Assembly (NCBI GenBank): GCA_963840145.1
Contig: CAWIXR010000002.1
Coordinates: forward strand, 325,666-389,665
DNA from: an uncultured Chloroflexia bacterium
Lineage (GTDB): Bacteria; Chloroflexota; Limnocylindria; QHBO01
Direction: 5' to 3'
Length of the DNA: 64,000 bases
Positions 11,523 to 53,373 of the stretch are shown one piece after another. A program made the translations under genes and the position numbers. Positions within the stretch are counted from its first letter, which is position 1, and each line of letters begins with the position of its first letter. The notes under the pieces were generated by a model. That model was not told where the DNA came from and did not search any database. It saw only the letters and a list, made by a program, of their open reading frames with translations.

Positions 11523-11599
11523 TGGCGGGCCCGACCGGATTCGAACCGGCGATCTCCAGCGTGACAGGCTGGCATGTTAGGCCGCTACACCACGGGCCC
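11523..11599 (-). tRNA. tRNA-Asp(GTC)
   Basis: Cloverleaf GGGCCCG...CGGGCCC-G-CCA; anticodon loop CTGTCAC; TTCGAAT T-loop. Confidence 0.97.
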
Positions 11600-13760: not shown

Positions 13761-15395
13761 GTGACCCTGGCTCCCACCGACGTCGACACCCGTTTCGACC
13801 GCACGATCGACCGCTGGTTCCGCGACCGGCTGGCCCTCAGCCCCGAGATCGCCACCTTCCTCGGGCTGCACGACCATGACGGAGACCTCGCGCCCGGCGG
13901 CCGCGACGGCATCGACGAGGAGATCGCCTTCTCGCGCCGCACGATCGACGAGCTCTCCGCGATGGACACGAGCGAGCTGAGCGCGGACCGTGCGCTCGAC
14001 CGCGACCTGGCCATCCACCAGGCCCGTCTCGGTCTCCACTGGCTGACCGAATACCGGCCGTGGGCCGCCTCGTCGGGCGCGGCTGAGCACATCGGCGAGG
14101 CGCTGTTCCCGCTCTTCACGCGGGACTTTGCGCCGCTCGCCGAGCGGCTCGAGAGCATGGTCTCGCGGCTCGAGAAGGCGCCCGGCTACATCGCGGAGAC
14201 GCGCGACCGCGTCACCGATCCAGTCAAGCTGTGGACGGAGATCGACCTCGAGTCGACCCAGCAGCTGCCGTCCTTCCTCGACACGATCGTGGCGGCCGCG
14301 CGTGCCGAGGGAGCGGAGGAGGGGCTGACCCAGCGCCTCTCATCGGCCTCCGACACGGTGAAGGCCGCGCTCGAGGAGCACGCCGCGTGGCTGCGCAACG
14401 ACGTCCTGCCGCGCGCCGACGCCGACTGGAAGGCCGGCCCGGAGCGCTTCGAGGAGATGGTCCGTCTCCGCGAGCTCGAAGCCGATGGCGACGAGATCCT
14501 CGCCGTCGGCGAGGAGCTGCTCGTGTCGGAGAAGGCGGCGCGGAACGCCCTGCACGACGAGATCGAGCCGGGCGCATCGGCCGAGCAGGTGGCCGACGCT
14601 GTCAAGGACGACCACGCCGCGACGTTTGCCGAGGCGCTCGAGGAGTACCGGGCCACGATGGCGCGGTCGCGCGCCTTCGTCGTCGAGCATGGGCTGGCCA
14701 CGCCGCCGGAGGAGGACCACCTCAGCATCATCGAGACGCCGTCGTTCGTCCGGCACCTCATCCCCTTCGCGGCGTACTACTCGCCGGCGAAGTTCGACCC
14801 GACGCCGGTCGGCACCTACATCGTCACCCCGCCGAGCACGCCGGAGATGATGCGCGAGCACAACCGCGCCTCGATCAGCAACACCAGCGTCCACGAGGCC
14901 TACCCGGGCCACCACCTCCAACTGTCCGCGGCGGTGACGAACCCGAGCCTCGTGCGCCTCTTCTCCGGCGCCCCCGAGTTCGCCGAGGGCTGGGCCTTCT
15001 ACTGCGAGCGGATGATGAAGGAGGCAGGCTTCGACGACACCCCGAAGGGCTGGTACATCGTCCACACCGATGCGATCTGGCGCGCCACGCGGATCATCCT
15101 CGACGTCCAGCTCCATCGCGGGCTCATCGGCTTCGACGACGCGGTCGACCGGCTGGTGGCCGAGACCGGGTTCGAGCGGCCGGCCGCCCTGGCCGAGGTG
15201 AAGCGCTACACCTCGACCCCGACGTACCAGCTCTCGTACCTGTTCGGGCGCCACATGATCGAGAAGCTCAAGGCCGATGTGCAGGCGCGTCAGGGCGCCG
15301 ACTTCGACCTTCGCCGCTTCCACGACACACTGCTCTACGGCGGGACGATGCCGGTTTCGTACGCGCGTCGCCTCTTCGAGACGAACGGCCGATGA
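13761..15395 (+). CDS. DUF885 family protein (zincin-like)
   Basis: HEAYPGHHLQ, FAEGWAFYCE, PTYQLSY.FG motifs. Confidence 0.88.
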   Translation: MTLAPTDVDTRFDRTIDRWFRDRLALSPEIATFLGLHDHDGDLAPGGRDGIDEEIAFSRRTIDELSAMDTSELSADRALDRDLAIHQARLGLHWLTEYRPWAASSGAAEHIGEALFPLFTRDFAPLAERLESMVSRLEKAPGYIAETRDRVTDPVKLWTEIDLESTQQLPSFLDTIVAAARAEGAEEGLTQRLSSASDTVKAALEEHAAWLRNDVLPRADADWKAGPERFEEMVRLRELEADGDEILAVGEELLVSEKAARNALHDEIEPGASAEQVADAVKDDHAATFAEALEEYRATMARSRAFVVEHGLATPPEEDHLSIIETPSFVRHLIPFAAYYSPAKFDPTPVGTYIVTPPSTPEMMREHNRASISNTSVHEAYPGHHLQLSAAVTNPSLVRLFSGAPEFAEGWAFYCERMMKEAGFDDTPKGWYIVHTDAIWRATRIILDVQLHRGLIGFDDAVDRLVAETGFERPAALAEVKRYTSTPTYQLSYLFGRHMIEKLKADVQARQGADFDLRRFHDTLLYGGTMPVSYARRLFETNGR

Positions 15396-16060
15396 GCCCG
15401 CGCATCGCCCTGGCGACAGCGCTGGTCGTCGTCCTGGCCGCGTGCGGCGCGGAGCCGACACCGACGCCGCAACCGGCCTGCCCGACCGAGCCGCCGACCG
15501 CGGTCTCGGCGCAGGCGACGCTCGAGGACGCAGCGCTGGCGACGGTCACCGTCAGCGGTGCCGTCGAGGGCGAGTTCGCCTTCGAGCTGTACCGGGACCA
15601 AGCGCCGATCGCCACCGCTAACTTCGTCGCCCTCGCGCGGTGCGGCTTCTACGACGGGATCTGGTTCCACCGTATCCTCGCCGGCTTCGTCATCCAGGCC
15701 GGCGACCCGGGGACCATCGGCCAGTCCGGCGACTTCCCGGGCCTGGGCAGGGGTGGGGCCGGCTATGGCTTCGAGATCGAGCCCCCGGCGGAGGACCTCT
15801 CCTACGTTCCCTACTCGGTGGCGATGGCGAACGACAAGCAGACCAACGACAGCCAGTTCTTCATCTCGCTCGTCGATCTCACCGATGGCCTTGAGCGCCT
15901 CTACACCATCTTCGGCCAGGTCGTTTCCGGGACCGAAGTGGTCGACGCGATCGCCACGGTGCCGGTCAACGACCCGCGCGTCGGGGTGCCGCTCGAGCTC
16001 GTGACGATCGAGTCGATCGTCATCTCCGGGGCATCGGAGCCGGCTGATTCGGGCGAATAG
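15392..16060 (+). CDS. Cyclophilin-type peptidyl-prolyl isomerase, lipoprotein
   Basis: LAAC lipobox; APIATANF..LA..GFYDG..FHRI..GFVIQAGDP; SQFFI. Confidence 0.9.
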   Translation: MSPRIALATALVVVLAACGAEPTPTPQPACPTEPPTAVSAQATLEDAALATVTVSGAVEGEFAFELYRDQAPIATANFVALARCGFYDGIWFHRILAGFVIQAGDPGTIGQSGDFPGLGRGGAGYGFEIEPPAEDLSYVPYSVAMANDKQTNDSQFFISLVDLTDGLERLYTIFGQVVSGTEVVDAIATVPVNDPRVGVPLELVTIESIVISGASEPADSGE

Positions 16061-16119
16061 GGCTTCTATCGGCCGCCAAAGCGCTTTGCAATGTAAAGGA
16101 AACTAAACCTCAGGAAGTC

Positions 16120-16148
16120 TTGTCCAAACGGAACAGGCGGTCTATTCT
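16120..16148 (+). promoter_or_regulatory. Sigma70-type promoter
   Basis: TTGTCC-N17-TATTCT in an AT-rich intergenic stretch. Confidence 0.6.
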
Positions 16149-16154
16149 GACGGT

Positions 16155-16297
16155 GCTGTTCGCACAGCGATTCACTACTGATCGCAAGGCCATGGGTAGG
16201 TTAGGGTTAGGGTAGTGCGGGAAACCGTGCGTGAAAGATGCCCTTGTGATTAGCGAATCCGGCAGCAATGAAGGCCCCCGCTTCGGCGGGGGCCTTC
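16155..16297 (+). ncRNA. Putative structured non-coding RNA of unknown class
   Basis: Own promoter; 5' hairpin, long stem (16178-16189 with 16242-16253), GAAA-tetraloop hairpin, G-rich loop, closing UUCG hairpin; no credible ORF. Confidence 0.55.
16270..16297 (+). terminator. Strong hairpin (terminator/processing stem)
   Basis: GAAGGCCCCCG-C-TTCG-G-CGGGGGCCTTC; weak U-tail. Confidence 0.6.
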
Positions 16298-16318
16298 GTC
16301 TATCATCGGTCTCTCGTG

Positions 16319-16394
16319 GCGCCTGTAGCTCAGTGGATAGAGCGTCGGCCTCCGGAGCCGAAGGTCGCAGGTTCGAATCCTGTCGGGCGCGCCA
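16319..16394 (+). tRNA. tRNA-Arg(CCG)
   Basis: GCGCCTG acceptor stem, anticodon loop CTCCGGA, TTCGAAT, 3' CCA. Confidence 0.97.
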
Positions 16395-16451
16395 TCTCTT
16401 CGGCGGCCTTCTCGCCGCTGATCAGCCGGTCGTCGAGGTCGGCCACGTCCG

Positions 16452-17321
16452 TCATGGTCCGCGACCGGGCAAGCCCTCGGCGTCCTGCTCGACGACGACG
16501 TTGCGGCTGGGCAGGCCGATCCCGGTCTCGCTGAACGCGGCGAGCAGCCGGCGCCGCAGCTCGCCGGTCACCGCCCACTGCTCGCCCGCCTGCACCTTGC
16601 CGAGGACCTTGATCGACATCCCGATCTCGCCGAATGCCTCGACACGGACGGCCTCCGGTGCCTCGATGACGCGATCGGCCCAGTCCGGATCGGCGGCCAG
16701 GGCGGCGCCCACCTCGCCGATGAGCGCCATCGCGCGCTCGACGTCGGCGTCGTAGGCGATCGGCATGTCGAGGTTGATGCCGCCGTAGCCGCGCGTTCGG
16801 TTCGATGCGATGCGGATCTCGCCGTTCGAGACGATGTGCAGGGTGCCGTCGGCGTCGCGTAGCTTCGTCCGACGCAGGCTGAAGTCCTCGACGGTCCCGC
16901 CGACCTGCCCGACGCCGATGACGTCGCCCACGTAGAAGTGGTTCTCGAGCAGGATGACCATTCCGGCCAGGTAGTCGCGCACGAAGTCCTGCCCGGCGAA
17001 CGCGACCGCGGCCAGCACGAGCCCGAGCCCCGCGATAACCGGGCCGAGGTTCAGCACGCCGAGGACGAGGATGACGACGAGCAGAAGGACGACGAATCGG
17101 ATCGTCGACATCGCCAGCGTCTCGACGGTGTCGACGCGCTTCTGGACCTCCGTTGCGGTCAGCCGCTCCGTCGAGCCCGGCTGCGTCTGGCCCTCGAAGA
17201 CACGATGGAGCACCCGGCGGATCGGCGCCCTCGCGAATCGCAGGACGAGGAGCCCGGCGACGATGATGGCGATGATCCAGAGGGCATCGTCTCGAACCTG
17301 ATCGAGGAGCTGCTCGTCCAC
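16452..17321 (-). CDS. Small-conductance mechanosensitive channel (MscS family)
   Basis: 3 TM, AGQDFVRDYLAG, VGDVI, GTVE..SLR.T.LRD.DG..H.V.NG. Confidence 0.9.
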   Translation of the reverse strand: MDEQLLDQVRDDALWIIAIIVAGLLVLRFARAPIRRVLHRVFEGQTQPGSTERLTATEVQKRVDTVETLAMSTIRFVVLLLVVILVLGVLNLGPVIAGLGLVLAAVAFAGQDFVRDYLAGMVILLENHFYVGDVIGVGQVGGTVEDFSLRRTKLRDADGTLHIVSNGEIRIASNRTRGYGGINLDMPIAYDADVERAMALIGEVGAALAADPDWADRVIEAPEAVRVEAFGEIGMSIKVLGKVQAGEQWAVTGELRRRLLAAFSETGIGLPSRNVVVEQDAEGLPGRGP

Positions 17322-53163: not shown

Positions 53164-53190
53164 ACTAGGCGTTCGCAGTACTTTAGTACT

Positions 53191-53263
53191 CGGCAGGACG
53201 CGCAGATCCATCGGCTGAACCTGGGCACTTGGGCCGATGGGGAGCAAGTAGTGCAACCGACCG
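53191..53263 (+). promoter_or_regulatory. c-di-GMP-II riboswitch aptamer
   Basis: GGACGC...CCATCGGC stem, TGGGCACTTG loop, GGCCGATGG, GGAGCAAGTAGTGCAACCGACCG 3' signature; GCAC/GTGC pseudoknot. Confidence 0.88.
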
Positions 53264-53373
53264 TTCCGTCACCGGAGTGTGTCGGTTGATACGTCCGTAA
53301 TCGGAAGAGGGCACCTTCTGATGTCTCGAGAAAACTTCAAGGGCTGGTAAGTCCCAGCCCAGTGAGGAACAGC

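Follow-up and report, generated by a model that had tools for sequence, protein, structure and literature searches.

Our analysis of a 64,000-nucleotide stretch of DNA from an uncultured Chloroflexia bacterium (GTDB class Limnocylindria; GenBank assembly GCA_963840145.1, contig CAWIXR010000002.1, positions 325,666 to 389,665 of the forward strand), hereafter the window, showed that positions 16155-16299 encode, on the plus strand, a structured small RNA of about 145 nucleotides (nt) with its own promoter and a terminator-like hairpin at its 3' end. It is the short form of its family, and because it fails the defining tests of each known kind of RNA that we checked, we regard it as a new family of RNA, of unknown kind. 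Sharp borders of conservation, covariation of the stems, and the fixed positions of the promoter and of the terminator hairpin make it more than a product of chance. An earlier sequence-only reading of the window had proposed a structured, independently transcribed non-coding RNA (ncRNA) of about 140 nt at this place, made of a promoter (TTGTCC-N17-TATTCT), hairpins, a GATTC/GAATC pairing, a long stem, a G-rich loop and a hairpin with a UUCG loop. All these elements are present where it had placed them, and covariation, conservation borders, promoter and contigs from RNA libraries now back the proposal as a whole. It had also named what would speak against an ncRNA, namely a match to a known Rfam family, or a lack of conservation, covariation or transcription; on each of these points our results favour the ncRNA. 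The elements of the locus are the following.

16093-16111, plus strand: A+T-rich block GTAAAGGAAACTAAACCTC, immediately 5' of the -35 box
16120-16148, plus strand: sigma-70-like promoter, with -35 box TTGTCC at 16120-16125, a 17-base spacer and -10 box TATTCT at 16143-16148
16155-16168, plus strand: P1, 5' hairpin GCUGU-UCGC-ACAGC, in which three of four scored pairs change on both sides
16169-16173, plus strand: 5' strand of the closing helix, GAUUC, pairing with 16255-16259 (GAATC), visible in the sequence
16178-16191, plus strand: 5' strand of P2, pairing with 16240-16253, with a C-C mismatch at 16190/16241
16192-16214, plus strand: G-rich strand of the internal loop, AUGGGUAGGUUAGGGUUAGGGUA, with G-tracts of 3-2-3-3 and linkers of 2, 1-3 and 3 bases
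16215-16230, plus strand: P3, hairpin GUGCGG-GAAA-CCGUGC, whose stem covaries
16231-16239, plus strand: 3' strand of the internal loop, GUGAAAGAU, CG-yG-A-N-AGAUG, invariant or nearly so in 59 members
16240-16259, plus strand: 3' strands of P2 (16240-16253) and of the closing helix (16255-16259), the partners of the 5' strands above
16260-16268, plus strand: single-stranded linker CGGCAGCAA, which the model aligns to CCGGGACAGCA of the long forms
16269-16298, plus strand: terminator-like 3' hairpin, a GC-rich stem of 13 base pairs (bp) with a UUCG loop

The borders of the RNA are visible in its close relatives. A blastn search with positions 16100-16318 against 40 relatives (E up to 0.001) matched 22 of the 24 genomes of the genus, most of them over the whole stretch at 90-97% identity and two of them in part; in other families of the class it found only the middle part, which is about 80% identical. 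When 21 species of the window's genus were aligned, 127 of the 144 columns of the RNA (16155-16298) were invariant; none of the six columns between the -10 box and the RNA, none of the seven after the hairpin, and four of the 20 at 16100-16119 were so. Conservation sets in at 16155 and is lost after 16298 in these species. The promoter, which we assign by its position in the sequence and which is probably of sigma-70 type, was sought in the 75 bases upstream of each of 132 full-length relatives. An arrangement of the form TTGnnn-N16-18-TAnnnT stands at the equivalent position in 105 of them, 86 of these having the 17-base spacer, and the other 27 mostly have a -35 box beyond the extracted bases or one of the TTCCCT type. 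The core GTAAAGGAAWCT of the A+T-rich block is mostly retained among 29 members of the window's family, and sequence farther upstream is not alignable; the block could be an UP element or the binding site of a regulator.

The structure was assessed on an alignment of 60 non-redundant sequences, using as controls the same pairs with partners slid by 1-3 columns and 500 shuffles. Pairing was found in 90.9% of the cells of the proposed structure, compared with 33-45% in the slid controls. Changes on both sides occur in 32 of its 47 pairs, compared with 7-14 in these controls. None of the 500 shuffles reached the observed values of pairing and covariation. The alignment thus shows predicted stems that covary, with compensatory changes that preserve the helices. 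The strand is fixed as plus, because cells with G-U or U-G (163) exceed those with A-C or C-A (43). The claim that the G-U wobbles of the long stem reflect selection on the RNA is in agreement with this excess and with the variable stem positions, which keep pairing. Folding energy alone was indecisive, because both strands look structured (single-sequence z-scores of -3.6 on the plus and -4.4 on the minus strand). For the window's RNA, the fold supported by covariation comes to -60.2 kcal/mol and is not the single-sequence minimum, which is -67.4 kcal/mol.

Each helix contributes to this signal. P1 takes other pairing sequences in relatives, such as GUCGC/GCGAC and CUGCG/CGCAG, and is missing in one family, f4 (families are numbered here, the window's own being f1). 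The GAUUC closing helix is aligned by the model with Pc, the junction-closing helix of the long forms, where columns 29/168 hold G-C in 46 rows, A-U in five and G-U in four. Within P2, CTGATCGCAAGG at 16178-16189 pairs with CCTTGTGATTAG at 16242-16253, G-U pairs included; with its extension P2a included, the helix has nine of 13 scored pairs with changes on both sides, 92.8% of its cells pair, and the four positions of the long stem that vary within the genus alternate solely between pairing combinations. The second pair of P3 is U-A in 40 rows, C-G in 10, U-G in eight and A-U in two, and the loop of this hairpin varies in length and sequence from family to family. The GC-rich 3' hairpin is present in all 132 full-length relatives, mostly with a UUCG loop and often with a T-rich tail, and both sides have changed in 10 of its 12 scored pairs. 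After this hairpin the window's own tail, UCUAUC, is poor in U; the U-run expected of an intrinsic terminator may correspond to the T-rich tails of many relatives.

The long forms, in f3 and f4, carry an extra hairpin, P5, and the helix Pc, which closes a three-way junction. P5 paired in just 49% of its inner cells in the MAFFT alignment, which is an alignment artefact: when the long forms are folded one by one, 35 of the 39 (33 distinct sequences) give a single hairpin. Pc changes from GCUG-C-CC/GG-A-CAGC in f3 to AGCUG-U-UCU/GGA-Y-CGGCU in f4. An alternative pairing at the junction, CUGCC/GGCAG, works equally well in terms of pairs; since it shows no compensatory change and is lost in f4, we prefer the three-way junction closed by the GCUG...CAGC helix, and the two may alternate. 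The 3' strand of Pc in the long forms is CCGGGACAGCA. The partner of the corresponding linker in the short form is uncertain, and the linker could pair with the 5' GCUGUU, as it does in the predicted lowest-energy fold. The comparison shows an architecture of P1, the long helix P2 and the 3' hairpin, arranged as a rod in the window's family and as a three-way junction with P5 in the other two, and P5 has been lost in the window's family.

P2 opens into a strongly asymmetric internal loop, in which a G-rich strand of 21-23 bases is followed by P3 and then by a purine-rich return strand of 7-9 bases. We judged its invariance only on 59 members found by the covariance model in three families, which avoids the bias of sequences gathered by the exact loop pattern. 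The 5' strand, CAUGGGUAGGU-N0-2-GGGU-N-AGGGUAG, is identical in all 59; the only variable bases are the zero to two that follow GGU and one in the last linker. The linker bases U, A, U, U, A, U and A are as invariant as the guanines. All 59 members have the pattern GGG-UA-GG-U(N0-2)-GGG-UNA-GGG, four tracts of at least two G with short linkers, which is compatible with a quadruplex. The strand has no C save at one variable linker position, and the RNA holds no free C-rich partner for it. The sequence-only reading had described the loop as telomere-like, and GGGTAGGTTAGGGTTAGGG at 16194-16212 indeed contains two exact UUAGGG (TTAGGG) units. The pair of units is shared by the window's genus and by part of the rest of its family; the majority of the other f1 genera read GGUUUGGGUAAGGG, and f3, among the other families, reads GGUAGGGUCAGGG. 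Because the form with two units is so confined, the resemblance to telomeres is incidental, and the conserved feature is the G-tract pattern.

The covariance model (R1), built from the 60 non-redundant sequences and used on samples of genomes, scored the window's RNA at 90 bits (E 7e-14), its sole match in that genome. It matched 47 of 50 genomes of f1, in addition to the window's own, 42 of 44 of f3, and all six of f4 (the tallies include the unpublished genomes G006, G118 and G144, on which no claim rests). In sum, 95 of the 100 genomes sampled across the three families have the RNA, and each positive genome carries exactly one copy. R1 had no match in 49 genomes of f2 or in the one of f5, and a search with lax filters in four f2 genomes and one f5 genome gave nothing credible (best E 0.64, in f5). 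In a sample of 151 genomes of the phylum, 13 had an R1 match, all of them Limnocylindria, and none of the other Chloroflexota sampled had one. A scan for the exact loop motif in one genome per prokaryotic species gave at least 120 stretches, nearly all labelled Chloroflexota or Candidatus Limnocylindria. Six rows among the matches listed are labelled otherwise (Steroidobacteraceae twice, Polarisedimenticolia, Sulfomarinibacteraceae, Anaerolineaceae and "bacterium"); the RNAs in these rows resemble ordinary forms of the family, and we take them to be on mis-binned or mislabelled contigs. The motif had no match in viral contigs, and a phage origin was rejected on this ground. In f4, with genomes of about 1.0-1.4 Mb (loci L195-L199 and L187), the RNA is without P1, and the loop of its P5, CUGACUUGUUCG, is conserved; retention of the RNA in these reduced genomes argues for an important function.

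The RNA is real and expressed. Part of its sequence is held in 24 public sequencing runs, six of which are recorded as RNA. Four metatranscriptome runs from four studies, made from soil and sediment RNA libraries, gave contigs that we placed on positions 15900-16500 of the window at 90% likeness, and these cover 16157-16304. Their summed word depth is about 70-110 in run X11, 50-200 in X14, 7-14 in X6 and 9-25 in X18. Short contigs lying entirely within the RNA reach a depth of 83 (X11, 16157-16267) and 120 (X14, 16182-16267), and depths of about 100 in RNA libraries from soil are hard to explain by contaminating DNA. Two contigs of X11 terminate at 16157, two bases inside the predicted 5' end, and some RNA contigs continue beyond 16304 into sequence unlike that of the window.

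Rfam 15 has no family for this RNA. Its 4227 models were used at their gathering thresholds, with E up to 10 on the region 16000-16420 and with E up to 1 on 10 diverse members, and these scans gave only the tRNA and weak matches: RsmY (21.8-22.6 bits), istR and 6C, driven by the 3' hairpin, and YrlA, on the tRNA. This upholds the sequence-only reading, which could not assign the RNA to that of the signal recognition particle (SRP), 6S, transfer-messenger RNA (tmRNA) or RNase P; the SRP RNA is located elsewhere in the genome, and ARAGORN found no tmRNA in the window. Nor did the open-access literature yield a paper that links Limnocylindria to an RNA motif or describes this RNA.

Likenesses to known systems nevertheless deserve attention. 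The Csr/Rsm sponges (RsmY RF00195, RsmZ, CsrB), the model behind the sponge idea of the sequence-only reading, are also stand-alone RNAs with their own promoter, a GC-rich terminator and repeated purine-rich unpaired motifs, but the only Rfam similarity, to RsmY, is limited to the terminator hairpin and scores 21.8 bits, below the threshold of 57. They show several GGA motifs in loops or single-stranded stretches, whereas the invariant loop strands here have none; the window's family has a GGA in its P3 loop alone, and the other families do not conserve it. The protein CsrA (PF02599) was found in none of 50 genomes of the window's family, nor in the window's own, and in six of 151 genomes across the class. 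The earlier suggestion of a G-quadruplex or a sponge therefore fares unevenly: the sequence pattern allows a quadruplex, and a sponge of the CsrA type is ruled out for the window's family by the lack of CsrA in these genomes. Bacterial Y RNA, the partner of Ro60 (YrlA, RF02553), is likewise a small structured RNA with a conserved loop module and lies near tRNA-like sequence, but its weak match (21 bits against 69) is on the neighbouring tRNA and not on the small RNA. Ro60 (TROVE, PF05731) was found in none of the 151 genomes of the class by a search whose control in Deinococcus was positive, and Hfq (PF17209) in none of them either.

Two further comparisons concern 6C RNA and orphan motifs. 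The 6C family has C-rich hairpin loops, and its function was long unclear. This RNA of Actinobacteria (RF01066) shares with ours a short length, high conservation, hosts of high G+C content and a defining unpaired motif rich in homopurine or homopyrimidine, but the match (20 bits against 47) is confined to the region of the 3' hairpin, and the motif here is a G-rich internal loop. The orphan motifs (raiA and those of the Weinberg and Breaker catalogues) also were clade-restricted, with covarying helices around invariant nucleotides and a function unknown at discovery; the small RNA differs from them in matching none of the Rfam models. The main texts of the motif catalogues do not mention this RNA, nor Chloroflexi, cyclophilin or quadruplexes. 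A riboswitch or another cis-acting leader was rejected: the RNA ends in its own hairpin, is followed by a tRNA or by varying unrelated genes, and has no match to a known aptamer.

We propose that the RNA works in trans and that the invariant loop would be its working surface, with the covarying helices serving only to display it. The folded loop would be specifically recognised by a putative protein partner. The result would be a constitutive ribonucleoprotein, or an RNA that sequesters its partner, comparable in role, though not in ancestry, to 6S, SRP and Y RNA. We infer action in trans, with the loop as the functional surface, and it is favoured by the RNA's own 3' hairpin and by downstream genes that differ between loci. 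Recognition by a protein is favoured because the loop is almost free of C, its linkers are as fixed as its guanines, and it has no long complementary target. We consider it the most likely mechanism, although the case for it is only evenly balanced. The partner is not CsrA, Hfq or Ro60.

Several observations weigh against this proposal. We found no protein partner, and the absence or near absence of CsrA, Hfq and Ro60 removes known models only. The variable positions of the loop lie only in the linkers between G-tracts, exactly as a G-quadruplex predicts, and a quadruplex fits this pattern equally well. Part of the sequence set was gathered by the exact loop pattern, and the R1 model itself favours a conserved loop. 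The family f2 lacks the RNA (none of 49 genomes, and none of four with lax filters), which therefore cannot be essential throughout the class. Finally, the expression data consist of assembled contigs, many of them from relatives, from which the strand and the true ends cannot be read; a flank with more than 10% divergence would not have been placed on the window, and the zero depth beside the RNA is accordingly weak evidence and does not amount to silence.

The strongest rival is that the loop forms a G-quadruplex or G-tetrad core, with two tiers, or with three tiers and one missing guanine. Held by the helices, the core could sense a cation or a guanine ligand, or serve as a module of self-association. 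The four G-tracts (GGG, GG, GGG and GGG) are invariant in the 59 members, their linkers are short, with variable positions only in the second and third, and the lack of C but for one variable linker position, together with the lack of a free C-rich partner, fits such a core. Yet the invariant linker bases are not required by a plain quadruplex, and the quadruplex option of ViennaRNA, which models regular tracts only, predicts none in the full RNA or in the isolated core. RNA quadruplexes are also reportedly depleted in bacteria. Taken together, we regard a quadruplex as unlikely, while giving it more weight than any other alternative. Among known RNAs, Spinach and Mango are aptamers with G-quadruplex cores. 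These two and TERRA share with the loop GGG runs spaced by 2-3 bases and, in the window's genus, two literal UUAGGG units; they differ in that UUAGGG is not conserved outside the window's family, that one tract here always has two G, and that the loop is set in a helical scaffold. A particular version of this idea concerns the short tract. Guanine derivatives can fill a guanine vacancy in a quadruplex, and the 3-2-3-3 tracts might be a natural guanine-vacancy quadruplex in a helical scaffold, a sensor acting in trans that would be completed by GMP, GTP, ppGpp, a cyclic dinucleotide or K+. Guanine-vacancy quadruplexes are a class described in DNA (PMC8682790). We consider this version a long shot.

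The RNA could also be a regulatory small RNA that acts by base pairing, its G-rich loop being a seed for C/U-rich sites in messenger RNAs, with G-U pairs allowed. Its layout, in which a conserved unpaired region lies between a dedicated promoter and a terminator hairpin, is typical of such RNAs when they act in trans. Other Gram-positive-type bacteria have small RNAs whose C-rich seeds pair with G-rich ribosome-binding sites, and the reverse arrangement is conceivable. However, the window's genome holds no complementary match of at least 12 bases to the loop besides the RNA's own gene and just one of 11 bases, in a test that covered neither seeds of 6-8 bases nor G-U pairing. Complementary 9-mers outside the gene are rarer than for shuffled loops (21 against 58-245), no Hfq was found in the 151 genomes, and 22 invariant positions far exceed the needs of a seed. 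We consider base pairing quite improbable.

Two genes flank the RNA in the window, and they raise the possibility that it is tied to a neighbour.

15386-16060, plus strand: gene of a cyclophilin-type peptidyl-prolyl isomerase (Pfam PF00160, E 1.8e-34; start approximate)
16319-16394, plus strand: tRNA-Arg(CCG), found by ARAGORN and Rfam

Among 84 loci with at least 800 bases of upstream sequence, 80 have a gene of the cyclophilin family upstream in the same orientation, which ends 91-549 bases before the loop. Of 48 loci scanned for tRNAs, 18 have tRNA-Arg(CCG) downstream, again in the same orientation (12 of 14 in f1, two of two in f4 and four of 32 in f3), and no other tRNA was found there. 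The RNA could accordingly be a module of the 3' untranslated region of the cyclophilin gene, or a 5' leader of the tRNA-Arg(CCG) precursor that is freed by tRNA processing. In the window the tail of the 3' hairpin is poor in U and the tRNA starts 20 bases on, and the RNA contigs that extend past 16304 would also fit a link with the neighbours. Against such a link, a promoter of conserved position separates the cyclophilin gene from the RNA, and the sequence from the stop codon of this gene to the promoter is not conserved. No tRNA lies within 1.5 kb in 28 of the 32 f3 loci, yet the RNA is intact in them, and genus members with insertions of 0.7-1.3 kb between RNA and tRNA keep the RNA. The cyclophilin of the window moreover has a lipoprotein-like signal sequence, as read from its translation, and a secreted protein would be an unlikely partner of an RNA. 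We find a cis-linked element hard to credit. Because the RNA has its own promoter and survives the loss of its tRNA neighbour, we read the order cyclophilin-RNA-tRNA-Arg as gene order that was inherited, rather than as a functional unit. The RNA and the tRNA may be co-transcribed in the window's family. The genes that follow vary from locus to locus and include MscS, a multicopper oxidase, ArsB, KdpD and an aldo-keto reductase.

The surroundings of the RNA show some further features. In five loci of the same genus (L006, L008, L012, L015 and L029), 0.6-1.3 kb are inserted between the RNA, which is unchanged, and the tRNA-Arg gene; in L008 the tRNA is about 730 bases from the RNA. A conserved motif like GTGTACCATGCC, with a -10-type box TACCAT, is found in the spacer between the RNA and tRNA-Arg in most genus members (L004, L007, L009, L010, L014 and L016-L020), and suggests that tRNA-Arg has a promoter of its own. 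The window's spacer (16299-16318) has only 20 bases, with TATCAT at 16301-16306, and a candidate tRNA promoter would there overlap the 3' hairpin of the RNA. On the other side, a perfect palindrome of 12 bases, CAAAGCGCTTTG, lies at 16078-16089, between the cyclophilin stop codon and the A+T-rich block; its half GCTTTGC is retained in most genus members, and it could be a remnant of the cyclophilin terminator or an operator. In f3 (L153, L163, L164 and L177), two tandem cyclophilin genes lie upstream of the RNA, and the one f2 genome checked for this, G025 (L215 and L219), has the same tandem pair without the RNA; the window's family has DUF885 as the upstream gene instead. The family f2 does possess cyclophilin genes, directly followed by coding sequence in the one locus read (G025), and no tRNA was found in any of the four f2 loci scanned.

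A highly divergent housekeeping RNA missed by the Rfam model, most plausibly 6S, is a still weaker alternative. 6S RNA (RF00013) is also single-copy, abundant, widely conserved within its clade and made of helices that flank a large internal loop. With the RF00013 model (threshold 46.4 bits), the region 16000-16420 (E up to 10), the whole of the window's genome and the 151 genomes of the class all came out negative, which leaves the role unfilled; this model detects 6S in only 4-5 of 14 control genomes, and its misses mean little. The class may have a divergent 6S RNA yet to be found. The small RNA is, however, much shorter than 6S, a rod of about 180 nt with paired ends and long helices on either side of a central bubble. 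Its own rod has about 90 nt, its 5' end forms a hairpin with itself and is not paired with the 3' end, and P3, the helix on the far side of the loop, is no longer than 5-6 bp, where 6S has about 20 or more. The distributions of the two RNAs are not complementary, since f2 lacks both this RNA and a detectable 6S. An identification as 6S by complementary distribution was set aside as uninformative, because none of the 151 genomes has a 6S match. We consider a divergent 6S very improbable. The last alternative, that the region is no RNA at all and is a conserved DNA element or a small protein-coding gene, is already contradicted and almost certainly wrong: open reading frames of 31 codons on the plus and 52 codons on the minus strand do overlap the region, but they are the only ones, no open reading frame is conserved (the longest varies from 5 to 43 codons across 59 relatives), substitutions in the stems are compensatory and preserve the helices, G-U exceeds A-C in a strand-specific way, and the sequence is present in RNA libraries.

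Two other RNA features lie elsewhere in the window. A c-di-GMP-II riboswitch aptamer is found at 53188-53271 (plus strand) with 60.7 bits, above the Rfam threshold of 53.5, and the organism therefore uses c-di-GMP signalling through RNA. A tRNA-Asp(GTC) gene lies at 11523-11599 (minus strand).

Limnocylindria are abundant, mostly uncultured Chloroflexota of soil and freshwater, and we found no published work on their RNA biology. The RNA described here has the profile of a core cellular RNA, being single-copy, present in 95 of 100 genomes of three families, preceded by a strong-looking promoter and covered at high depth in RNA libraries, and it fits none of the known core RNAs or systems of small RNA and protein that we tested. 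Its loop, with 22 invariant and nearly cytosine-free positions arranged as G-tracts with short links, is unusual for a bacterial RNA and offers a precise and cheap target for biochemistry. If a partner were found, the result would be a new ribonucleoprotein or a new principle of sensing. The guanine-vacancy reading, if true, would make this RNA the first among conserved bacterial ncRNAs to be organised around a core of G-tetrads. Even without a partner, the family merits an entry in Rfam, which would improve the annotation of more than 100 metagenome-assembled genomes.

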